This document shows positions 1 through 46,795 of a stretch of 46,795 nt of DNA, piece after piece. The stretch's first letter is position 1. Each line of letters starts with the position of its first letter. Origin of the DNA: a virus. Lineage: Duplodnaviria; Heunggongvirae; Uroviricota; Caudoviricetes. Both the position numbers and the translations under genes were made by a program. Location of the stretch: the IMG/VR virus record IMGVR_UViG_2740892118_000012, positions 1 through 46,795 of that record; one strand, 5' to 3'. The notes below the pieces were generated by a model. It worked only from the letters and a program-made list of their open reading frames with translations, ran no database searches and was not told the DNA's origin.

Positions 1-3000
1 ATGAAAAAAAATTCTTTAAATGTGATTTTGGATACTGTTTTCTCGGCGAAAAGCATCAATGGTGAGAAATCTCATTCTTTTATATCGTATAAATTAGTTA
101 AAGCTGTAGAAAATTTAAGTGGATATGACTTGGATCTTTTCCTCAATCGTGCGATAAACCATCCTAACTTCCCTAGCAATATGGATTTTTCCTTACGAAC
201 AGTTTTTACAATTGAACAATCTAACACTATTGAATTTAAAAATTTCATTTCAGAATTGGTGTGGTACAAGCATATTTTCATACGATATAAAAAACACCTT
301 AATGATATATTATCGGCAAAGGCAAGACTTGAGAAGTTAGTTCTTTTCGCAACAGGTAGTGAATGTATAAAATATTTAGATGAAATAGAAAGCTCTTATG
401 GAGTTAGTTTTTGGAGCATTGATGCTCGTCTCTTAATAAATAAAGTTTTGCTTAACGAAAGCAATGGGTTATATGTTAAATCAATTCTATCTAAAACCCA
501 CTATAAACTTACAGAGTTTATGTTACAGCAGCTATTATTTAAGCATCAAGTACATAACTTTGATGATTTTTCAAAGAACCTTATAAAAATACTAGATGAT
601 ATGCGCACCACTCAAGATAATGGGTATGCTAGAAATTTAGCTGATGGTATTTCATCCTTTTTAATACCTTTAGAGTTTGATAAAAATATAGATCTCAAAA
701 ATAGAACCTTAGCACCATTTACCAACCTTCCTTTAATAGATCAATTTATCATATTCCAGAGAACTATAAGCGATTTACAACTTCATGGAAATGGTTTAAG
801 AAATAGCGAGTTAAGCTTAATTGCAGAAATTAACAGCTTTATTAAAAATAACTATCTCAACAATATTTTAGATGGAAGAGAGCGTAATATAGAGAATATT
901 GATGAACACTATAAAAGTGTTATTCGACGTTATACTATAGGTGATTATACTGGGTGTATTTCAGAAATAAATTCAGTTCGAACGCAGAAGACAATTTTGC
1001 CATTAATTGAAATATATGCAAAATCCCATGTGTATCTTGATAAGAAAATTTCAGACTCATGCATATTCAATAAATTAACAAACTGGCTTATAGCAATTAT
1101 AAAATGCGACAGACGCGCTGGAAAATACATCGATGAATTTGAACTTTTAGCATCTAAGATATATTTCAATTCAAATTCATCCTCTCTATTCTTCACATTA
1201 TATAATTTAATAAGTGATAACCATAATAAATTAAACATATCTCGTATAAATCTAACCAAAAATGGTTCCTTTGTAACATCCCTTCATTTGAATATAACAA
1301 TCAAGGAACTATGGACTGAACTTGGAATAAAAGAGAATGAGATACCAAAATATCGATTATTTAAATTCAAAGACCTAGCAAATCTATCCTTTGATGAAAT
1401 CAAAAAACACTACGAAGTATACAATGATAATGTAATAATTCGCTCTGAATATTTAAAAGATTATACTAACTTTTTATTAGAAAATGAAAAGTATGAATTA
1501 TGCATCCAATTTATAGCTGAAAACTGCATCGGCAACCCCGCAAATTATTACTACTTCCCAATCCGAAAAATAATTGATTTTGTAAAAGACAATATTTTTG
1601 ACTATGCAAGCGTGGCCTTATCTATATTGATAGATATTTTTGTCAAAAGCACATCAAACACTTCAAATGAGCTTCTTCTCGAAAGTTATGAGAGTTTAGT
1701 AGATATTTCAAATATTAATAGGCCATCTACCCATTATTGCTCTAAGCAATTAACTCCATTAGAGCACTATTTCCTTAAGTTTATCTGTATACCTTCCGTG
1801 ATGGATTCAGACCCTTCATTCACAGGCACGGACGACTTGAAGAAGGAAAGAATTGCTATTATAGATCTATTATTAAAAGAACACGATGATGCAGATTTAT
1901 TGAAAGAGAAAGACGAAATTATAGATGAAATATCATTCGAAGAAATAAAAACAAAATATGAGACAGGAAAAATATTTGTTGATATAGAAAATTTAAAACG
2001 GGCAAAGCTTGAAAGATACAGATATTATTTTGATGCACTTAAGGATTCGCTTATTCTCGGACTAGAACCACCTGAAGACTTTGCTTTAATTACAGACGAT
2101 GGGAATATCACAGCCATTCCATCTGGCGATACAAACTCTATAATCCATGAACTTCTAAAAGAACTAATCTCCGATTTTGTTAAAAATGAAAATTACGGTC
2201 TTGATAAATATTTGAGTGCAGATATACGGCATGGTGTTTTTGAAAATCAACTCAGATCAAGTGCTGAAAAATCGCAATTAATAACTGATATGGATGGTAC
2301 TGGACAGTATTCGAAAAGCAATTTAATTATTGAGACATATCCATTAATTAACCCTATTATAAATAACGAAATAGGGACAGCAATAGCTGATTTCTCTTAT
2401 CACTTTGACATTGAATTGGCTAAAGCCAATTCCTGGTTCAATGTCAAGACAATGCTCATAAGTGAATCACAGCAAGGTATGATTGATTTCCTCATTTCTG
2501 TTGATATGTTTAATTCATTTAAAGCAGCAGTTTCAAATCAAGCATCTTTTGAGAAGTTTTTTGACGCTTGTATTAACTTCATGTGGGAAAGAACGTTCAG
2601 ATGTTTGAATGATATTAAAGAGCGATTGCATTACGAATTTAAGAGGAATATTTTAGATTTAATTGCCACTCTTAGGCATCAAATTGATATCTATAGAAGA
2701 CGTAGTTCCATGAGAGAAATCCAGGAGAAAATTGACCTCTTGGCCGAAAGCATTAATAAAGAAATTGCAACAGTCTGCGATTGGTTAAATGTACTTGAGT
2801 ATAACGAGGAGAAAATATATAAAATATCATCCGTGATGCAGGCATGTAGGAAAACTTTTTTTAATATACACCATTGTTCTGATGATGCTATCGTTTTTGA
2901 TTCAATGTATCATGATGATGAACCAAAATTATCTTATAAAGAAGCCAAGCCTCTAATCACATCAATAATAACAGCGTTAAACAATGCTATGGCCTATGGT

Positions 3001-3276
3001 AATAAAAAAATCTTTATCAGTATTAAGCCTGAAGAAAAGTCATGGAAAATAACCATCAGAAATTTGATAATTGAGACAAAGAACAGAACTACCAACCAAA
3101 TTTTACAAGAGATTGATGATAAAATAAAACGAGGGGATAATAGTCTAAATATAAAAGAAGGCGGAGCTGGAATATATAAAATATATGATTTATTATGTTC
3201 ATTACCGCAAAGATTTAATGTGAATCATTGCATCCAAAATAACGAATTCATTTTAAATATTGAGATAAAGAAATGA
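1..3276 (+). CDS. Large sensor-like protein with C-terminal histidine-kinase-type (GHKL) ATPase region; first gene of a Detocs-like three-gene phosphorelay cassette (DtcA-like). ATG at window position 1, so the N-terminus may be truncated by the window edge
   Basis: ORF 1..3276 (1091 aa). C-terminal ~200 aa carry an N-box-like 'ITALNNAMAYGN', a glycine loop 'EGGAGIYKIY' and a candidate H-box 'ATLRHQID'. No Walker A P-loop seen. Stop overlaps next start (ATGA at 3273-3276). Strongly AT-rich. Confidence 0.6.
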   Translation: MKKNSLNVILDTVFSAKSINGEKSHSFISYKLVKAVENLSGYDLDLFLNRAINHPNFPSNMDFSLRTVFTIEQSNTIEFKNFISELVWYKHIFIRYKKHLNDILSAKARLEKLVLFATGSECIKYLDEIESSYGVSFWSIDARLLINKVLLNESNGLYVKSILSKTHYKLTEFMLQQLLFKHQVHNFDDFSKNLIKILDDMRTTQDNGYARNLADGISSFLIPLEFDKNIDLKNRTLAPFTNLPLIDQFIIFQRTISDLQLHGNGLRNSELSLIAEINSFIKNNYLNNILDGRERNIENIDEHYKSVIRRYTIGDYTGCISEINSVRTQKTILPLIEIYAKSHVYLDKKISDSCIFNKLTNWLIAIIKCDRRAGKYIDEFELLASKIYFNSNSSSLFFTLYNLISDNHNKLNISRINLTKNGSFVTSLHLNITIKELWTELGIKENEIPKYRLFKFKDLANLSFDEIKKHYEVYNDNVIIRSEYLKDYTNFLLENEKYELCIQFIAENCIGNPANYYYFPIRKIIDFVKDNIFDYASVALSILIDIFVKSTSNTSNELLLESYESLVDISNINRPSTHYCSKQLTPLEHYFLKFICIPSVMDSDPSFTGTDDLKKERIAIIDLLLKEHDDADLLKEKDEIIDEISFEEIKTKYETGKIFVDIENLKRAKLERYRYYFDALKDSLILGLEPPEDFALITDDGNITAIPSGDTNSIIHELLKELISDFVKNENYGLDKYLSADIRHGVFENQLRSSAEKSQLITDMDGTGQYSKSNLIIETYPLINPIINNEIGTAIADFSYHFDIELAKANSWFNVKTMLISESQQGMIDFLISVDMFNSFKAAVSNQASFEKFFDACINFMWERTFRCLNDIKERLHYEFKRNILDLIATLRHQIDIYRRRSSMREIQEKIDLLAESINKEIATVCDWLNVLEYNEEKIYKISSVMQACRKTFFNIHHCSDDAIVFDSMYHDDEPKLSYKEAKPLITSIITALNNAMAYGNKKIFISIKPEEKSWKITIRNLIIETKNRTTNQILQEIDDKIKRGDNSLNIKEGGAGIYKIYDLLCSLPQRFNVNHCIQNNEFILNIEIKK

Positions 3277-3722
3277 AAATTCTTCTTGTTGAGGATATTG
3301 AATATAAGCGTGATAAGGTGATCGGTTTACTAGAGTCTATTTCTGCCGATGTATCAGTCGATGTAGCTAAATCTTATGTTTCGGCAGTAAATTCCGCAAC
3401 CAGTAAAACTTATGATCTTATAATATTAGATATGAGCCTTCCCACTTACGATAAGGGGCCTAATGAAAATGGAGGTCGCTTCAGAGTGTACGGAGGGAAA
3501 GATATTATTCGCAAGTTAATGAGAGGAAAAGAGCATCCAGTAGTTGTGGTTTTAACACAACATACAACTTTTGGTGAAATTGGTGAGCAAAAAAATACTG
3601 ACACTCTATCACAAGAGTTGAATGCTTTAATGGGATCAAAATTTATAGGTATTGTAAAATATGACTCAACTAAACCTCAATGGAAAGATGAAATAAAAAA
3701 AGTCGTACAGGATTTGTTATGA
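3273..3722 (+). CDS. Stand-alone response-regulator receiver (REC) domain protein (DtcB-like)
   Basis: 149 aa. REC signature: N-terminal 'ILLVEDIE' acidic pocket, 'DLIILDMSLP' with phospho-acceptor Asp, 'VVVLTQ' Thr, downstream Lys. ATGA overlap with both flanking genes. Confidence 0.7.
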   Translation: MKILLVEDIEYKRDKVIGLLESISADVSVDVAKSYVSAVNSATSKTYDLIILDMSLPTYDKGPNENGGRFRVYGGKDIIRKLMRGKEHPVVVVLTQHTTFGEIGEQKNTDTLSQELNALMGSKFIGIVKYDSTKPQWKDEIKKVVQDLL

Positions 3723-4882
3723 TTAAAATATTAATAGTTGATGACAATAAATCTAGAATTGAAAAGCTAAAATCTAGCTTAACTGAACTCATCACAAAAA
3801 ACATGATAAGGATTGATGAGAAATATACAAGTGACGCCGCAAAAATCGCGCTCAAGTTAAATCAATATGATTATTTAATTCTTGATGTCTTTTTACCTAA
3901 AAAAGATAACTATAGCCCAGATGAAAGAAATGGATTAGGTCTTTTAAAACAAATAAATTCAGATTCTAAATTTTACTCTCCAAAAAAAATAGTTGGCATA
4001 ACTGCATATCTGAATGATATATCCAGATATGAATCCGAATTCAGAGAATATGCTTCAATTATATTCGAGGCTCGACGTAATGATACTGGATGGCTTGAAT
4101 CACTCAAAAAAATCATTGAAAAGGATGTTGAATCTCAAGTAAGTTATAATCTCAATGAAAAAGATAGTGTTTTAATAACAGTACACGGTATAAGAACCTA
4201 CGCACCTTGGCAAAATACCATAGAAGAAAAAATAACCAATATATCAAATAAATTTAACTATATAAAATTCAATTATGGTTTTCTAAATATTCTTTGTTTT
4301 TTATTCCCTCCGACTAGACATCTATTTGCAAGAAAAATAATCCAAGACATACGAATTACAGTGGAATCAAATAAGAATAAAAGAATTTATATTATTTGTC
4401 ATAGTTTTGGTACCTACCTTGTATATTGTGCCTTAAGTAAACTGACACATACGGATGCAAAAATTGAATGTTTAATTTTTTCTGGTAGCGTATTAAAACG
4501 TACTACCTCATTGAAAACATTAAAGCAACATTGTAATGCAATAATAAATGACTGTGCTGTAAGTGATTATATTTTATTACTATGTAAAATGTTAGTCATT
4601 GGCTTGGGCGATGCAGGCAGAAAAGGGTTTATTGAGCCAAATGATGGTGTTTTCATTAACCGCTATTTTAAAGGAGGACATTCAACTTACTTCGAAGATA
4701 AAGATTTCATAGAAGTGAACTGGCTTCCTTTAATTTTTGACAATAAAAATATCGCGTCACGAGATGAAAGAAAAAATCATATTTTTTCCGATGTCACCAA
4801 TGCTTTGCAAAATATAATTGAATATTTAAAAATACCAATATGGTTATTTTTTTCTTTTTTATTGATAGCACTGGTATTATAA
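3719..4882 (+). CDS. Receiver (REC) domain fused to alpha/beta-hydrolase-like (serine esterase/lipase-type) domain with C-terminal hydrophobic anchor; putative effector (DtcC-like with non-PNP effector)
   Basis: 387 aa. N-terminal REC ('ILIVDDNK', 'DYLILDVFLP', 'IVGITAY'). C-terminal part has 'LITVHGIRT' (oxyanion-hole HG), 'IICHSFGT' (nucleophile elbow x-H-S-x-G), 'DAG' and 'GGHST' (candidate acid/His), ending in hydrophobic 'IPIWLFFSFLLIALVL'. Confidence 0.65.
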   Translation: MIKILIVDDNKSRIEKLKSSLTELITKNMIRIDEKYTSDAAKIALKLNQYDYLILDVFLPKKDNYSPDERNGLGLLKQINSDSKFYSPKKIVGITAYLNDISRYESEFREYASIIFEARRNDTGWLESLKKIIEKDVESQVSYNLNEKDSVLITVHGIRTYAPWQNTIEEKITNISNKFNYIKFNYGFLNILCFLFPPTRHLFARKIIQDIRITVESNKNKRIYIICHSFGTYLVYCALSKLTHTDAKIECLIFSGSVLKRTTSLKTLKQHCNAIINDCAVSDYILLLCKMLVIGLGDAGRKGFIEPNDGVFINRYFKGGHSTYFEDKDFIEVNWLPLIFDNKNIASRDERKNHIFSDVTNALQNIIEYLKIPIWLFFSFLLIALVL

Positions 4883-4905
4883 TATCACTGCACATTAAAA
4901 ATCAT

Positions 4906-4933
4906 ATTGGAGCTTCCCTCATAAAGCTCCAAT
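4906..4933 (+). terminator. Perfect 10-bp inverted repeat hairpin (ATTGGAGCTT-N8-AAGCTCCAAT) downstream of the cassette; possible terminator or protein-binding site
   Basis: Seen directly; lies 24 nt after the stop at 4882 in a convergent AT-rich intergenic region; no clean U-run follows. Confidence 0.3.
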
Positions 4934-5361
4934 ATAAAACACCATCATTTCAATAGTACCTGCAGCTAATTAAAACTAGTCAACCGAAAACATTAATCAC
5001 TTTAAACTTTAGTATGCACTTATACTTTCTTAATAATAGAAAAACACTTACAAATAAATTAATCATGTCAATCTCCGTAACTACAACCTCGGAAAGTATG
5101 TAAACAGGAATCATTACTGAAAAAAACACGATTTCAGCAGAATTCTAGAAATATCCTGTGCTGCTGCCGATACCAACTTTCGTATATACTACCCTTCACG
5201 TTCCTTCTCGTTTTTATAAAACTATTCATTTATAACTATCAATAGGCATCATAACCAATGTAAGTGTAAGTACTGGTGAACGAGTGTCAATGGAGTTAAA
5301 AGTATCACTTCATCCTGCTAAATATAAGTTATCCTACGTTTTAATATACTAGAACTCAAAA

Positions 5362-6327
5362 TTAGAATGGTTTGTTAATATTAATAGATTTACCATTGAT
5401 ATCTTTTGACACCTTAAAAAAATCTATACCTTTTATCCACTGACATAACTGTTGTAGTGTTTCCATTGCCTGTTCTAACTCATTTTTTTCAATTCTAACG
5501 CCCCCATGATGGCTACAGGAATTTAATAATTCCTGAGCTAGAGTGATGTCATTCTTCAGCTTATTAGGCAGACCGAGAAAATTAATCACCCTCGACAAAC
5601 TCCCAAGCATTAACTTTTGATAGTCTTCTTCAAATTCCTTTTCAGCCCTAATATTTACTAACATCAAAACATACTCAAGATAACGCCGTGCTGTATTTCC
5701 CTTTTCTTGTAACGCATCTCTATCATACTCTTTAATATCACTCAATTCCTGTAGTAGAAAATCAAACTTAGCTATTGCCAAGTTAAGATTGATGTTATGC
5801 ATTAGCAATTCGGATGCATGATTGCTAACAGGTACACGATTTGGTGGACGTATCATTATAGCCGTCGTGTAACAATTTATATTTGGTATCTGTATAAATT
5901 CCTCACCGGAACGCGTAACACGTTGAACTTCTACCATATAGTGGCCAAATTTATCAATCTCATATGACCGACAACGAGCAGAATATAATTTATTTAGCTT
6001 TTTCCTGTCTTGATAATATGATTTTATTAATACAAAAAATGCTCTTTCGTGCTCAATAATTAAAATAGTCTCTATTGAAGCATGGTACAACCATCCGTTA
6101 TTCCATGTTAATTCAAGCTGTCTATTTCCATCTTTAAAATCAATTTTAGTTATACGATCCCAACTTCCTCTATCAATAAAATCGACAATATTGCGCCCAA
6201 ATCCTTGATAGTTATTTTTAACAATGTGCAATAGTACTGCCTTTATTTTATCCCAATCATGAATTTCTTTTTCATATTCACCATTTAATATATTCGTTAA
6301 ATCACTGTGAAAATTTTCATATGTCAT
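5362..6327 (-). CDS. Hypothetical protein (321 aa), AT-rich island cargo adjacent to integrase; no recognised domain
   Basis: ORF with ATG start at 6327; AT-rich codon usage like the cassette; convergent with the cassette and co-directional with the integrase. Confidence 0.55.
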   Translation of the reverse strand: MTYENFHSDLTNILNGEYEKEIHDWDKIKAVLLHIVKNNYQGFGRNIVDFIDRGSWDRITKIDFKDGNRQLELTWNNGWLYHASIETILIIEHERAFFVLIKSYYQDRKKLNKLYSARCRSYEIDKFGHYMVEVQRVTRSGEEFIQIPNINCYTTAIMIRPPNRVPVSNHASELLMHNINLNLAIAKFDFLLQELSDIKEYDRDALQEKGNTARRYLEYVLMLVNIRAEKEFEEDYQKLMLGSLSRVINFLGLPNKLKNDITLAQELLNSCSHHGGVRIEKNELEQAMETLQQLCQWIKGIDFFKVSKDINGKSININKPF

Positions 6328-6428: not shown

Positions 6429-7613
6429 TCAATTGACATCATTACCAATTCTTCCAATGCAATCAGCATACCACTGCATCATCTCCCTCCGCCCTTCCAG
6501 ATACAAAGCATGGTTGTACGTCCCACGAATCGCATTCTTATCGACATGCGCAAGCTGGGTTTCAATCCATGCCGTATTGAACCCTTCCTCGTGCAAAATC
6601 GTACTCATCGTGTGACGGAAACCATGCCCCGTTACCTTCCCCGTATACCCAATCCGTTTGAATACCTGATTCATACTCGCTTCACTCATCGTCTTGCGGG
6701 GATCATTTCGCCCTGGGAATACCAGTGGATATTGCCCAGATATCACCTTGAGTTGTTGTACGATTTCCAGCGCTTGGGTAGATAGGGGGACAAGGTGAGG
6801 CCGTTTCATCTTCATACGCTCTGCAGGTATTTCCCACACTGCTTTTTCAAGATCAAACTCACTCCAGAAAGCACCTCGTAGCTCGCCAGTACGAACTCCT
6901 GTAAGGATCAGCAGACGAGCGGCAAGAACAACTAACGGGCTTCCTGTGTAGCCTGCGAGAGCTTTAAAGAAGTCTGGTAACTCCTCAACAGTAAGGAAGG
7001 GATAATGCTTCGATTCATGCCCTGACATTGCGCTGGTTAGATCCGCTGCAGGATTGTATTCCGCACGACCGGTAACGATGGCGTAACGAAAGACTTCACT
7101 GCAACGCTGGCGAACCTTCTTGGCCTTCTCTGTCGCGCCACGGCTTTCCATTCGACGTAGCACATTCAGCAGAACCAAAGGCTTGATGTCATTCACCGGC
7201 AGTTGGCCAATATAAGGGAAAATATCTTTATTGAAGGCTTCGATAATGTCGGAGGCATAACCTTCTGACCACCGGCTCACCTTCGTTCCGTGCCATTCAA
7301 GTGCCACAGCCTGAAACGTATTATTGAGCTGCACATCGCGAACCAACTTTTCTTCTTTCTTGGCAAACGATGGGTCGATACCTTCGGCCAGCTTTTTCTT
7401 GGCTTCATCACGCAGTGCCCTCGCTTGTGCAAGGGACACTGCCGGATAGACACCAAAAGCCATACGTTTCTCTTTTCCATTGAAGCGATATTTCATCCGC
7501 CAGTATCGAGAACCAGAAGGAACAACTTCAAGATACAAGCCTGCACCATCTGCTAGCTTGTAGGCTTTCTCTCTGGGTTTAGCAGCATCTACCTGTCGAG
7601 CATTAAGCTTCAT
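6429..7613 (-). CDS. int: P4-type tyrosine integrase (site-specific recombinase)
   Basis: N-terminal 'GLYLEVVPSGSRYWRMKYRFNGKEKRMAFGVYPAVSLAQAR' (P4-int N-terminal domain); C-terminal catalytic 'HGFRHT' and 'RGTYNHALY'. ORF track starts at a GTG at 7652; ATG at 7613 has RBS AGGGAG ~9 nt upstream (ATG at 7622 also possible). Confidence 0.9.
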   Translation of the reverse strand: MKLNARQVDAAKPREKAYKLADGAGLYLEVVPSGSRYWRMKYRFNGKEKRMAFGVYPAVSLAQARALRDEAKKKLAEGIDPSFAKKEEKLVRDVQLNNTFQAVALEWHGTKVSRWSEGYASDIIEAFNKDIFPYIGQLPVNDIKPLVLLNVLRRMESRGATEKAKKVRQRCSEVFRYAIVTGRAEYNPAADLTSAMSGHESKHYPFLTVEELPDFFKALAGYTGSPLVVLAARLLILTGVRTGELRGAFWSEFDLEKAVWEIPAERMKMKRPHLVPLSTQALEIVQQLKVISGQYPLVFPGRNDPRKTMSEASMNQVFKRIGYTGKVTGHGFRHTMSTILHEEGFNTAWIETQLAHVDKNAIRGTYNHALYLEGRREMMQWYADCIGRIGNDVN

Positions 7614-7776
7614 TGGGGGCATCTCCCTGGACCGAACACAGAATGCCCCCACTTATGCCCCCAACTGCGACTTGATTTCGGTTGAGTCCAGTTGATAACA
7701 GGAGATAAGATACGGGCCAGAAACCGCAGTATACGGGCTTTTAGTTGATTTCGGTAGACTTGGGAAGAGTTTGAAA

Positions 7777-7822
7777 TGGTGCCGATAATAGGAGTCGAAC
7801 CTACGACCTTCGCATTACGAAT
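7777..7822 (-). tRNA. Partial tRNA-Thr (anticodon CGU, thrW-like) 3' fragment of 46 nt, anticodon loop to CCA end; not an intact tRNA gene; attachment-site core repeat
   Basis: Reverse complement reads TTCGTAATGCGAAGGTCGTAGGTTCGACTCCTATTATCGGCACCA (anticodon loop, T-arm GGTTCGACTCC, CCA end). Identity to the recalled tRNA-Thr sequence stops 5' of this; flanked by phage DNA on one side. Confidence 0.75.
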
Positions 7823-8053: not shown

Positions 8054-8353
8054 CTACGATGCAAGAATCCATACCAATAAGCATCCGATAATTGGGAAAG
8101 AAAAATCCAACAGACTTCCCACATCCCACACGCGTGGATCAAAACCTCCCCACCACGGCATGTTGATGCGTTTCCCTTTCCCAAACTTTTCTATCCAGCG
8201 ATATTCTGCCTGGGTGTGTTCACGCGCAATGAAGAACGTACAACCGGCTATCGCACCGTAAGCCCAGTTTCCGGTAGAAAGGCCAACCAGTACCTGAGCC
8301 GCAAAAGCGCAAAGCGAGTGAAGAAATGGAGTGACATCAATGCTCTTAATCAT
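8054..8353 (-). CDS. Small hypothetical membrane protein (about 3 hydrophobic segments) immediately downstream of tailspike
   Basis: 99-aa ORF, start overlapping tailspike stop; hydrophobic stretches '[12 protein letters not shown]', '[13 protein letters not shown]', '[14 protein letters not shown]'. Confidence 0.35.
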
Positions 8354-10407
8354 GAAACTTCCCCATTGGTTGAAAATATGGCTCCTCCAACGCCAAGTGT
8401 ATTTCGTGTTGCGCTCAACCTCAGAGGGCTGGAGTCAGAATTAGAATATCCTGTAGCAGAAATAAAAGATCCTCCACTAATAGTCAACTGCGGAACATCG
8501 GCTATATCTGAATAAGTTCTGTCAGCAACAGTATTATTTATAGCCACATGTGATCCAAAAAAACTTCTTATTGTTTGGTTTTTAACTTTACTTCCTTCAA
8601 TGGTTATCCTACTACCACAGTCGGCAATAAATCCTGAATCTGCATCCAGCGTTGCATTCATAAAAGAAGCTTCAGATCTCTCTACATCAATCCATCTAAT
8701 ATCTTTTGTGGGATTTGCACCAAATACATGACAAATATTAGAGTTAAACCTTACACCATCTTGGAGGTGCATTAATTTTTTTATATCTGTACCCCATAGC
8801 CTTGGAAAATTAACAGATGCTCCTGCATGGCAATCAAATCCCAGCTCAACCCCTGAGATATCTACAGCCTTTCCGGAAATAACAGCACCAGTGTCTGCAT
8901 TAACGGCTGTTCCACAATTGCGCATATCATTACCAGCAACATCAACACAACCCGCACCATCAATACGCACACCAAGTGCACATCCATAAAAACCTTTTTC
9001 AATATTTGGTTCAAGGACTTTACCACTTGTTTCTGCATCACTTTCTTCAACGTCATGTCGTCTTGCATCAACATATGCTGTATGAATGCACGTTAATCCA
9101 CGATATGAGCAATGTATAGTTTTATGGTCGCGTATATTAACATTTGAACCATCTCTTACATTCCATCCTATATAACAATAGCTTGCACTTGACCCCTGAA
9201 AATCTGCTTTAACATTATAAATACAATTAACTGACGCAACCGTACTCTCTGTGCACCGTTCAAACTTACTTACAGGCATTGATGCCTTGACATTATTTAC
9301 CAGTTGCAGGGAAGAGTATCTGCTATAAGAAAAATCACATACGTAATACCCTTCTGGCATATATGCAGCAACACTTTCCTCATCAGGAGCACATCCGGTA
9401 TGATATGCACTAATTTTTGCACCAAAACTACCATGAATTCCAACGTAGAACTTTCGAGCACCTGAATACGGATAGAAATTAAGTTCAGCTTTTTGAGTTA
9501 CAATAAATGCACAAACATCGCTATCATCTCTATTTTCTTCAATCTGAATAGCAAATACAGGACTTTTTGCTGCATCGCAAATGTAAAATAAATATTTGTA
9601 TTCGTAATACGTCCTAACAGTTTTAGTAAACAAACTGGTATCAGAGAAAACCACTGAGTCTTCTGATATTATTTTAATCCATGATAAGTCACATCCTGCT
9701 GAAATTTCTATTTGCTCATTGAGCACAAAACCGGAAAGAATTTTAATTATGCAAAAATCAATGCCATTTTTCCATAGTGGACGCAGTGCAACAGCTGAGT
9801 TCAGAGCATCACTAATAGATTTAAAATTACCATATTCCCCAACTGTTATTGTGAATGCATACCTGGAATTAAATACTGCGGCACTCTCTCCAGAGTTAAT
9901 AGCTGCAGATATCATGTCATAATTTGATATAAAATCATTTGGCGTGATTATTTCTGCGTTTTTATTGTGCTGTGTTCTAAGTTTTGAATTTACATGAACA
10001 CTTTTAACTGCAATACGGGAGTCGTCAACAAGTATTTCATTACCCTCTGTTGCTAACTCTTGTCTTAACTGATCCGGATCATACTTCAGCACATTCGGAA
10101 AATAGAACTGCTGCACACCGTACGCATCATAAACAGCCATCGAATGGCCTTGCACGGTAACGAATTTGGCAATCTGTCCGTTATATACCGGATATCCAGC
10201 AGCGTTAATGATGATTGGCTGTGCAACAGGAACGTGAGAACCATCTTCGTTCTCAACATAGACCTGAATCTGGTTTTCTGGATTTACCGGGTCAGTGTCA
10301 ATTTTACCGATATAAATTTTGCCATTGGCTACGGCTTTAAAAGAACGAGCCATAGTGAAGAGTTGCGAAGGCATGCTCACTACAACATTGGCTGTAATGT
10401 CTGTCAT
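8350..10407 (-). CDS. Tailspike protein (P22 gene 9-type N-terminal head-binding domain, divergent receptor-binding domain)
   Basis: N-terminal ~110 aa '[13 protein letters not shown]...[21 protein letters not shown]...NVLKYDPDQ' closely matches recalled P22 tailspike N-terminus; the remaining ~570 aa do not. Confidence 0.85.
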
Positions 10408-45410: not shown

Positions 45411-45758
45411 GTGGAAGAAGAAATCTTCACTCGTGAAGAGGCGGCGTCGTATCTGAAGGTAGACAAAGGCACTATCACGCAGTGGATACGAAGTGGACGA
45501 CTTCAGGCCGCAAAGATAAATCCAGATAAACCTAAAAGCCCATATCGCATTTGCAAGTCAGACTGCATTGCGGCGCTTAAGTCTGTGAGACACAATAGCG
45601 CGGTGAATGCGGTTGATGTGCAGGAGGTTAAAGCATGTCAATCAAACTACGCGGTGGCACGTGGCACTGCGATTTCGTCGCGCCAGATGGATCAAGAGTT
45701 AGACGCTCTCTTGAAACATCGGACAAAAGGCAAGCGCAAGAACTTCACGATCGTCTGA
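45411..45758 (+). CDS. xis: Excisionase (HTH DNA-binding, Xis)
   Basis: 'TREEAASYLKVDKGTITQWIRSGRLQAAK' HTH; immediately upstream of and overlapping int, as in lambda/P22. The 3' end in the overlap is uncertain. Confidence 0.6.
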   Translation: MEEEIFTREEAASYLKVDKGTITQWIRSGRLQAAKINPDKPKSPYRICKSDCIAALKSVRHNSAVNAVDVQEVKACQSNYAVARGTAISSRQMDQELDALLKHRTKGKRKNFTIV

Positions 45759-46795
45759 AAGCAGAAGCGTGGAGAGTAAAAAATCTCGGGGAATCACCGA
45801 AAAAGCTATTCAAGGAAGCCTGCATACGGTGGCTTCGTGAGAAATCGGATAAGAAGTCCATTGATGATGACAAGAGCATTATATCGTTCTGGATGTTGCA
45901 CTTCAGAGAAACCATTCTCTCAGACATAACAACAGAAAAAATAATGGAGGCGGTAGACGGGATGGGAAACCGCCGCCATCGCCTGAACTGGGAAATGAGC
46001 CGGGACAGGTGTTTGCGACTTGGTAAGCCAGTGCCGGAGTATAAACCAAAGCTGGCAAGCAAAGGAACGAAGACGCGGCATCTGGCAATACTTCGCGCTA
46101 TTCTCAATATGGCTGTTGAATGGGGATGGCTTGACAGGGCGCCCAAAATATCAACACCACGCGTTAAGAATGGACGAATCAGATGGCTTACAGAGGAGGA
46201 ATCGAAGCGCCTGTTTGCAGAAATTGCTCCTCATTTCTTCCCTGTGGTCATGTTTGCAATCACGACAGGCCTTCGCCGTTCCAACGTTACAGACCTTGAG
46301 TGGTCACAGGTAGATCTGGATAAGAAAATGGCATGGATGCACCCTGATGAAACAAAAGCTGGCAATGCGATCGGAGTTCCTCTTAACGAAACCGCATGCC
46401 AGATATTAAGAAAACAGCAGGGTCTCCATAAGAGATGGGTGTTTGTCCACACCAAACCTGCCTACCGAAGCGACGGAACAAAAACAGCAGCGGTAAGGAA
46501 GATGAGAACCGACAGCAACAAGGCATGGAAGGGAGCGTTAAAGCGGGCAGGCATTAGCAACTTCCGCTTCCATGACCTGAGGCATACCTGGGCAAGCTGG
46601 CTGGTTCAGTCCGGTGTCTCTCTTCTTGCACTTAAAGAGATGGGAGGATGGGAAACTCTCGAAATGGTTCAAAGATACGCCCACCTTTCAGCCGGGCATC
46701 TCACCGAGCACGCGAGCAAAATCGATGCGATTATAAGTCGCAATGGCACAAATACGGCACAAGAGGAGAACGTAGTTTACTTAAATGTGAGGTAA
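45635..46795 (+). CDS. int: Tyrosine integrase (P22 Int-like, lambda integrase family)
   Basis: 386 aa; '...KRQAQELHDRLKAEAWRV...KSIDDDKSII...RRHRLNW...FRFHDLRHTWASWLVQSGVSLLALKEMGGWETLEMVQRYAHLSAGHLTEHA' matches recalled P22 Int with catalytic R, H-x-x-R and Y; stop at window end. Confidence 0.9.
   Translation: MSIKLRGGTWHCDFVAPDGSRVRRSLETSDKRQAQELHDRLKAEAWRVKNLGESPKKLFKEACIRWLREKSDKKSIDDDKSIISFWMLHFRETILSDITTEKIMEAVDGMGNRRHRLNWEMSRDRCLRLGKPVPEYKPKLASKGTKTRHLAILRAILNMAVEWGWLDRAPKISTPRVKNGRIRWLTEEESKRLFAEIAPHFFPVVMFAITTGLRRSNVTDLEWSQVDLDKKMAWMHPDETKAGNAIGVPLNETACQILRKQQGLHKRWVFVHTKPAYRSDGTKTAAVRKMRTDSNKAWKGALKRAGISNFRFHDLRHTWASWLVQSGVSLLALKEMGGWETLEMVQRYAHLSAGHLTEHASKIDAIISRNGTNTAQEENVVYLNVR

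Follow-up and report, generated by a model that had tools for sequence, protein, structure and literature searches.

Where a receiver domain, a serine-hydrolase fold and a hydrophobic C-terminus are joined in one polypeptide, in which system does the protein act, and on what? The question is raised by an open reading frame (ORF) at positions 3719-4882, plus strand, of the 46,795-nucleotide viral record IMGVR_UViG_2740892118_000012 (Caudoviricetes), which was analysed over its whole length and is called the window here. The initial annotation had read this ORF as a putative phosphorylation-gated lipase or esterase, plausibly acting in abortive infection. We found the ORF, 387 residues from ATG to TAA, exactly as it had been described, with its motifs in place: VHGIRT at residues 155-160, CHSFG at 227-231, DAG at 298-300, GGHST at 319-323, and 16 hydrophobic residues at the end (372-387). 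We conclude that it is very probably dtcC, which codes for the effector response regulator of a Detocs operon, dtcA-dtcB-dtcC, of the 'Hydrolase + TM' (transmembrane) subtype.

Identity of the operon

Detocs was described as a system of three proteins: the kinase DtcA, the 'buffer' receiver DtcB, and DtcC, in which a receiver is fused to an effector (Rousset et al. 2023, bioRxiv 10.1101/2023.01.24.525353). In about 80% of Detocs systems the effector is a PNP ATP nucleosidase, and a minority carry other effectors (bioRxiv 10.1101/2023.01.24.525353). Table S5 of that study lists approximately 30 'Hydrolase + TM' systems, from Escherichia coli (three strains), Klebsiella quasipneumoniae, Klebsiella oxytoca, Vibrio, Yersinia, Serratia ficaria, Leclercia, Pseudomonas and Burkholderia, and a Detocs-hydrolase operon from Enterobacter cloacae JD6301 protects E. 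coli against diverse phages (bioRxiv 10.1101/2023.01.24.525353, Fig. S8C). The subtype is therefore already known, having been published and tested in 2023 with E. coli and Klebsiella members listed, and conceptually the locus adds nothing new as a Detocs system.

The window begins with three plus-strand ORFs that overlap by 4 bp (ATGA) at each junction. The first, dtcA (1-3276), has its start at window position 1 according to the RefSeq coding sequence, and codes for a sensor/histidine-kinase-like protein of 1091 residues. The second, dtcB (3273-3722), codes for a stand-alone receiver of 149 residues, the proposed phosphate 'buffer', and the third is dtcC (3719-4882). The three genes match the PADLOC profiles PDC-M60A, PDC-M60B and PDC-M60C in gene order. 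PDC-M60A covers DtcA residues 491-1061 (E 4.5e-55) and PDC-M60B matches DtcB with an E-value of 2e-35. PDC-M60C matches DtcC in the receiver only (residues 2-149, against positions 1-147 of the 407-position profile; E 1e-22). We compared this behavior with that of the published Detocs sequences (Table S1 of bioRxiv 10.1101/2023.01.24.525353). The PNP-type DtcC of Vibrio alginolyticus aligned to positions 1-404 of the 407 (E 1.4e-64), and the validated hydrolase DtcC of E. cloacae aligned to positions 1-151 only, just as the window protein does. From the published DtcC and DtcB sequences we conclude that PDC-M60 corresponds to Detocs and that the partial match of the window protein is explained.

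Direct comparison with the E. cloacae JD6301 system gave the same answer. DtcC aligned with its counterpart at 32% identity in BLASTP (query 1-373, subject 1-371, E 9e-56), and DtcB aligned at 32% identity (E 1e-19). The two systems share gene order and an effector composed of a receiver, an alpha/beta hydrolase and a C-terminal TM segment, with 387 residues in the window protein and 386 in the E. cloacae protein, and both effectors contain the HG, HSFGT, N-E/D-C-x3-D and GGHS motifs. They nonetheless belong to different lineages. R159 and D298 of the window protein are replaced by Met and Asn in the E. cloacae protein, and the N-terminal regions of the two DtcA proteins barely align, with one 57-residue stretch at E 2e-4 when the first 399 residues of E. 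cloacae DtcA were compared. The idea of a phosphorylation-gated abortive-infection effector is supported by this match to a published system and by the relationship to a protective operon.

The same arrangement was found elsewhere. Genes for proteins of about 1100, 150 and 390 residues recur in this order in unrelated E. coli and Vibrio cholerae neighborhoods, and the taxa of Table S5 coincide with the list of DtcC homologues, in which the top match, at 98% identity, bears the name of K. quasipneumoniae. The E. coli case, a second Detocs lineage of that species (protein P0095) in the yjcB-ssb defense island (PMC11728103), likewise has a receiver-hydrolase-TM DtcC, 34% identical to that of the window, with a DtcA of about 1100 residues and a DtcB of about 150 residues encoded upstream. 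In contrast to the window operon, which lies in a tRNA-Thr island, it is located at yjcB/pdeC, and its DtcC belongs to a sub-clade with Met at the position of D298 (GTGMAGR). The V. alginolyticus UCD-32C system shares the operon logic and the PADLOC A and B profiles, and its DtcC is homologous to ours over the receiver (29% over 98 residues), with no alignment beyond it.

Predicted phosphorelay residues, hydrolase fold and hydrophobic tail

The receiver domain of DtcC occupies residues 1 to approximately 122 (3719-4084, plus strand). The Pfam receiver family matched residues 4-98 (E 2.7e-5, under the gathering score), and a profile built from 40 DtcC homologues matched solved receivers such as CpxR (E 1.7e-6). 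Conservation was counted, here and below, in an alignment of 121 DtcC homologues of about 32-40% identity that includes the published E. cloacae protein. The phospho-acceptor D56 (nucleotides (nt) 3884-3886) was invariant. In the acidic pocket, D9 was Asp in 120 sequences with a gap in the remaining one, and D8 was Asp in 119, Glu in one and a gap in one; T95 was Thr in 120 and Ser in one. W125, at the start of alpha5, was also invariant. D56 aligns with D58 of V. alginolyticus DtcC, and a D58A substitution in that protein results in loss of defense (bioRxiv 10.1101/2023.01.24.525353).

The two upstream proteins supply candidates for the other steps of a relay. DtcB matched Pfam Response_reg (E 3.1e-8; 34.2 bits against a cutoff of 30.2), with its acceptor D53 (nt 3429-3431) in the motif LILDMSLP. 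For DtcA, we aligned the window protein with its homologues from the E. coli yjcB island and from V. cholerae. H744 (nt 2230-2232) lies in SADIRHG, within the motif GLDKxLSxxIRHG that is invariant in these three sequences, and N995 and EGGxGxYK (residues 1053-1060), also invariant, resemble N and G boxes. H744 is our predicted phospho-histidine. In the published work, defense depended on the His of the kinase and on the Asp of DtcC, and a DtcB Asp mutant was toxic, results obtained in the PNP-type system only (bioRxiv 10.1101/2023.01.24.525353).

An AlphaFold2 (AF2) model of full-length DtcC, computed from the 40-homologue alignment, had a mean predicted local distance difference test score (pLDDT) of 88.4. 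It comprises a (beta-alpha)5 receiver (residues 1 to ~122), a helix at 124-146, a six-stranded alpha/beta domain (~150-340) and a C-terminal helix (357-386). The long alpha5/linker helix (4088-4156, plus strand) joins the receiver to the alpha/beta-hydrolase domain, which takes up residues ~147-340 (4157-4738, plus strand). The fold prediction therefore contains the alpha/beta-hydrolase topology on which the initial annotation depended. The predicted template modelling score was 0.61 for the full-length protein and 0.87 for a model of residues 141-387 alone, and the pLDDT falls to 66 at residues 141-150; because of this difference and this dip, we regard the arrangement of the two domains relative to each other as uncertain.

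Within the model, the putative catalytic residues occupy the positions expected of them. H156-G157, the candidate oxyanion hole (nt 4184-4189), is at the end of strand 150-157. The candidate nucleophile S229 (nt 4403-4405) follows strand 222-228, the candidate acid D283 (nt 4565-4567) follows strand 275-280, and H321 (nt 4679-4681), in a Gly-Gly-His motif, follows strand 312-317. As modelled, the order and placement of nucleophile, acid, His and oxyanion hole are canonical for alpha/beta hydrolases. The alignment points to the same residues. H156-G157-I158, T160, W164 and Q165 in the oxyanion-hole region were invariant in the 121 homologues, as were H228-S229 in the elbow, N277, C279 and D283 in the region after beta7, and G319-G320-H321 around the His; G231 was present in 120. 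Since overall identity is about 35% and HG, Ser, Asp and His nevertheless occur in every one of the 121 sequences, we conclude that there has been selection on catalysis. The predicted triad is Ser229-Asp283-His321. The architecture first read from the ORF, a receiver followed by an alpha/beta hydrolase, was thereby borne out, as was the choice of the His in GGHST.

Two details of that first reading changed. The Asp of 'DAG' had been put forward as the catalytic acid, and we rejected it: D298 is Asp in 70 of the homologues, Met in 50 and Asn in one, the Asn being found in the validated E. cloacae orthologue, whereas D283 does not vary. The Cys at the first position of the nucleophile elbow had been considered unusual. 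The elbow of the family can be written as Ala/Cys/Ser/Gly-His-Ser-Phe/Tyr-Gly-Thr, and its first position is most often Ala (61 sequences), followed by Cys and Ser (26 each), Gly (7) and Thr (one), so Cys is a normal variant. The majority form, Ala-His-Ser-Phe-Gly, resembles the Ala-His-Ser-x-Gly of the family I.4 lipases of Bacillus, a likeness that we treat as a lead only.

The C-terminal hydrophobic helix, residues 372-387 (IPIWLFFSFLLIALVL; 4832-4879, plus strand), comes just after K371 and is a predicted tail-anchor TM segment. It is the hydropathy maximum of the protein, with a Kyte-Doolittle mean of 2.22 over 19 residues, and a terminal 16-mer with at least 14 residues drawn from A, I, L, M, F, V and W arose at a frequency of 8.5e-5 in 200,000 shuffles of DtcC. 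The tail was hydrophobic in 102 of the 121 homologues (17-residue Kyte-Doolittle mean of at least 1.6), and its sequence was poorly conserved. In the AF2 model it forms the end of a continuous helix (357-386) with a pLDDT of 84-94. Only DtcC among the three proteins has a TM-like segment; the 19-residue maximum is 1.51 in DtcA and 1.0 in DtcB, and on this ground we conclude that the relay is cytoplasmic and that the effector alone is bound to the membrane.

Several observations weigh against the assignment of this operon and need to be set beside the evidence above. The tested orthologue is just 32% identical. DtcA gave no Pfam (HisKA/HATPase_c) or PDB sequence match to histidine kinases, and its identification as a kinase comes from the PADLOC profile, the conserved motifs and the literature. 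At the end of beta5, where receivers canonically have a conserved Lys, the DtcC receiver has none; residues 117-118 (nt 4067-4072) have the consensus Glu-Ala, with Glu or Asp followed by Ala or Gly across the 121 homologues. No Pfam alpha/beta-hydrolase family matched at its gathering score, the best being DUF900 with 19.6 bits against 20.5, and we consequently left the hydrolase subfamily, and hence the substrate, unassigned. Lastly, the hydrophobic tail is just 16 residues long, and 19 of the 121 homologues fall under the usual TM threshold.

Possible target of the hydrolase, predicted membrane topology and proposed mechanism

If DtcC is a membrane-anchored hydrolase, what would it cleave? 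The initial annotation had favored lipids or envelope components, and DtcC may indeed be a lipase of this kind. The profile search that it had called for came out both ways: hydrolase matches centered on the elbow were found, and none of them attained a gathering score. Besides DUF900, the Pfam hydrolase families (Lipase_3, DUF676, Hydrolase_4, Tle3 and others) gave 11.7-16.4 bits against cutoffs of 20-27, and the sub-threshold Pfam and NCBIfam matches were all local. PDB profile searches with the full-length and the domain alignments gave hydrolase matches at E-values of 0.03 or above. Our literature search found no later paper on the biochemistry of the Detocs-hydrolase effector.

A possibility that we take seriously, while considering it less probable than not, is that the system is the same Detocs and that its hydrolase acts on a target other than membrane lipid. 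Candidates close to the membrane include acyl-ACP or acyl-CoA, a lipoprotein, a lipid-linked cell-wall precursor and a phage protein, and the bond cut would be an ester, a thioester or an amide. Consistent with such a target, no lipase family exceeded its Pfam threshold, and the domain has no obvious lid, with 160 of its 186 residues aligning with the minimal hydrolase YdeN. Bacillus subtilis YdeN (1uxo), Lip_vut1 (6nkc) and the Pseudomonas fluorescens carboxylesterase (1auo) all resemble the DtcC domain in having a small core without a large cap; they differ from it in having neither a receiver nor a membrane anchor, and their identity to it is 11-13%. Two observations favor membrane lipid instead. 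The weak Pfam and PDB matches cluster on lipase-type elbows (Lipase_3, DUF676, LIDHydrolase, Tle3, RavL, PAF acetylhydrolase and B. subtilis lipase), and throughout the family the domain comes with an obligatory membrane tether.

We examined the tether further by searching a profile of the hydrolase plus tail (residues 141-387, nt 4139-4879) against 1.84 billion representatives, and 4599 cluster representatives matched at an E-value of 1e-3 or less. Among the best 150 of these, 57 were fused to a receiver, 9 consisted of the module alone, and in 82 the module was N-terminal and followed by 100-1033 further residues. Ten sampled proteins with such C-terminal extensions (set P0191-P0301) carried WD40 propellers (five proteins), leucine-rich repeats, an OmpA-like domain or RHS repeats. 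The homologous hydrophobic segment, with a Pro-x-Lys-x3-Tyr lead-in, is internal in these 82 of the 150 best relatives. OmpA-like domains are typically periplasmic. Such a domain downstream of the segment fits a single pass with the N-terminus inside and the C-terminus outside, which places the hydrolase on the cytoplasmic side, and a receiver-fused DtcC needs the same orientation in order to obtain phosphate from a cytoplasmic kinase. Because hydrophobicity is kept where sequence is not, and because the homologous segment is internal in extended relatives, we favor a membrane helix, and predict that DtcC is a tail-anchored, or single-pass, membrane protein. The E. cloacae orthologue was likewise annotated 'TM' by Rousset et al. 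(bioRxiv 10.1101/2023.01.24.525353).

The same data bear on two other readings of the C-terminus, both of which we consider improbable. In one, the hydrophobic end would be a buried or autoinhibitory element packed on the hydrolase. The segment is short enough for this, at only 16 residues, and AF2 builds it confidently (pLDDT 84-94) as the end of helix 357-386; a packed end is difficult to reconcile with a segment that lies inside 82 of the 150 best representatives, ahead of 100-1033 residues that include OmpA-like, WD40 and leucine-rich-repeat domains, or with the TM annotation of the orthologue (bioRxiv 10.1101/2023.01.24.525353). In the other, the TM helix itself would kill, by oligomerisation or pore formation, and the hydrolase-like domain would be catalytically irrelevant. 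Table S5 does contain a Detocs effector annotated just '1TM', and membrane-spanning effectors are a known class (bioRxiv 10.1101/2023.01.24.525353). This picture is countered by the invariance of HG, Ser, Asp and His in all 121 homologues at about 35% identity, and by tails that are poorly conserved in sequence and weakly hydrophobic in 19 of the 121. A catalytic, membrane-anchored DtcC remains the reading that we prefer.

The mechanism that we propose for it takes the gene order, the homology to a validated system, both folds, the invariant acceptor and triad residues, and the hydrophobic anchor from the present analysis. The defense phenotype is carried over, by analogy, from the homologous operons of V. 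alginolyticus and E. cloacae JD6301, and the need for His and Asp phosphotransfer and the buffer role of DtcB are carried over from the PNP-type system. We infer which residue of DtcA is phosphorylated, that phosphorylation of D56 activates the hydrolase, what the enzyme cleaves, and that this subtype acts by abortive infection. Cytoplasmic DtcA would sense phage infection and autophosphorylate on a conserved His, predicted to be H744, and the phosphoryl group would then move to D56 of the DtcC receiver. DtcB, through D53, would absorb stray phosphate and so keep the system off when no phage is present. Phosphorylation of the receiver would turn on the Ser229-Asp283-His321 hydrolase, which the C-terminal TM helix would keep on the cytoplasmic side of the inner membrane. 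Activation might come about by dimerisation or, as with CheB, by the freeing of an occluded active site. The hydrolase would then cut an ester, or a thioester, in a substrate close to the membrane, for which a membrane lipid is the most plausible candidate, and the infected cell would be arrested or killed ahead of phage progeny.

Two known proteins help to place this mechanism. CheB has an N-terminal receiver that controls a C-terminal Ser/His/Asp hydrolase and is activated by phosphorylation of the receiver Asp; it is a soluble regulatory enzyme and no toxin. The working principle of DtcC, a receiver-gated serine hydrolase, would be like that of the CheB methylesterase, whereas CheB is neither membrane-bound nor toxic, and homology to CheB_methylest was absent from the DtcC catalytic domain in all of the searches run. 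The V. alginolyticus DtcC is gated by a homologous receiver and differs in what follows: it carries a soluble PNP-like ATP nucleosidase in place of the membrane-anchored Ser-Asp-His hydrolase found here. Because the two effector domains are unrelated, we conclude that the cellular targets differ, with depletion of ATP in one case and a presumed membrane-proximal ester in the other.

The spread of the module allows a more speculative proposal, to which we assign a low probability. The hydrolase plus TM segment may be a widespread, biochemically uncharacterised membrane-tethered module whose substrate is something other than bulk phospholipid, such as a lipid-linked envelope precursor or an acylated protein. 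We found no description of the family. If the proposal is true, Detocs-hydrolase would represent an undescribed chemistry of abortive infection, in which a phospho-relay is linked to a module that in other proteins is apparently connected through the membrane with sensor domains in the periplasm. Since the module is common outside Detocs, working out its action in this genetically accessible E. coli system would shed light on a far larger protein family. Mutagenesis could be aimed at DtcC D56, HG156-157, S229, D283 (not D298), H321 and the TM segment 372-387, together with DtcA H744 and DtcB D53.

Genomic setting and neighboring genes

The window is E. coli DNA. Of 5426 complete genomes of this species, 17 had the operon, always on the chromosome and always at least 99.9% identical. 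Its GC content (positions 1-4882) is 30.5%, compared with about 48% for positions 7653-46795, and from this sharp contrast we conclude that it was recently acquired from a low-GC donor. The Detocs-bearing island includes a P4-type tyrosine integrase (6429-7652, minus strand; NCBIfam PRK09692, E 1.9e-89), and in strain XH992 the part of the island upstream of dtcA carries an IS3 element, an antirestriction gene and a CbtA/YeeU toxin-antitoxin pair. Low GC, an integrase island at tRNA-Thr and patchy occurrence are typical of mobile defense cargo.

Public annotation of the operon is generic or wrong. In RefSeq, DtcA of the E. coli genomes is a 'hypothetical protein', DtcC is mostly an 'alpha/beta hydrolase', and none is labelled Detocs; in some genomes (for example H28, H29, H32 and H34) DtcC is a 'response regulator transcription factor' or a 'hypothetical protein'. 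That DtcC is an ordinary, non-defensive two-component output enzyme, a phospho-regulated esterase as CheB is in chemotaxis, would agree with RefSeq names that say just 'response regulator' and 'alpha/beta hydrolase' and with the frequency of receiver-enzyme fusions in signaling, and we nevertheless judge it the least probable reading of all, given that homology to the Detocs profiles, and to an operon shown by experiment to protect, extends to all three genes, that there is an additional gene for a buffer receiver, as Detocs systems typically have, that no search returned any similarity to CheB, and that the operon sits in a low-GC integrase island found in so few E. coli genomes (17 of 5426).

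We also examined the surroundings of dtcC for further genes. The sole antisense ORF over the dtcC region is 61 residues long and lies in AT-rich DNA; we saw no ground for considering it. Between dtcC and the island integrase is orf321 (5362-6327, minus strand; 321 residues, GC 32.6%), which had no Pfam, NCBIfam or PADLOC match and a marginal PHROG match. Its homologues form 41 clusters in Enterobacterales and Aeromonas. We rejected orf321 as a fourth Detocs component: the homologues stand alone in unrelated Serratia and Proteus neighborhoods, with long intergenic flanks, and never beside Detocs. The gene has the look of orphan mobile cargo, and we left its function unassigned. The convergent genes dtcC and orf321 are separated by a hairpin with a 15-bp stem (4902-4937), terminator-like on the minus strand, of which there was one site compared with 0.1 expected in shuffles.

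The Detocs island and a prophage adjoin at the tRNA-Thr site. Read on the opposite strand, positions 7778-7822 are a tRNA fragment, just the 3' ~45 nt, and ARAGORN detected no complete tRNA anywhere in the window. The genome of E. coli SMS-3-5, in which tRNA-Thr is annotated at this place, matches at 100% through position 7822. Because the 3' 45 nt alone remain and the SMS-3-5 match ends at 7822, we conclude that the prophage split the tRNA-Thr gene flanking the island. The prophage, at approximately 7823-46795, is P22-like (IME10-like): of a 24-kb stretch that was searched, 61% aligned with phage IME10, at 96% identity. It includes a tailspike-like ORF of 685 residues (8350-10407), and its integrase (45635-46795; PHROG integrase, E 4e-71) lies at the end of the window.

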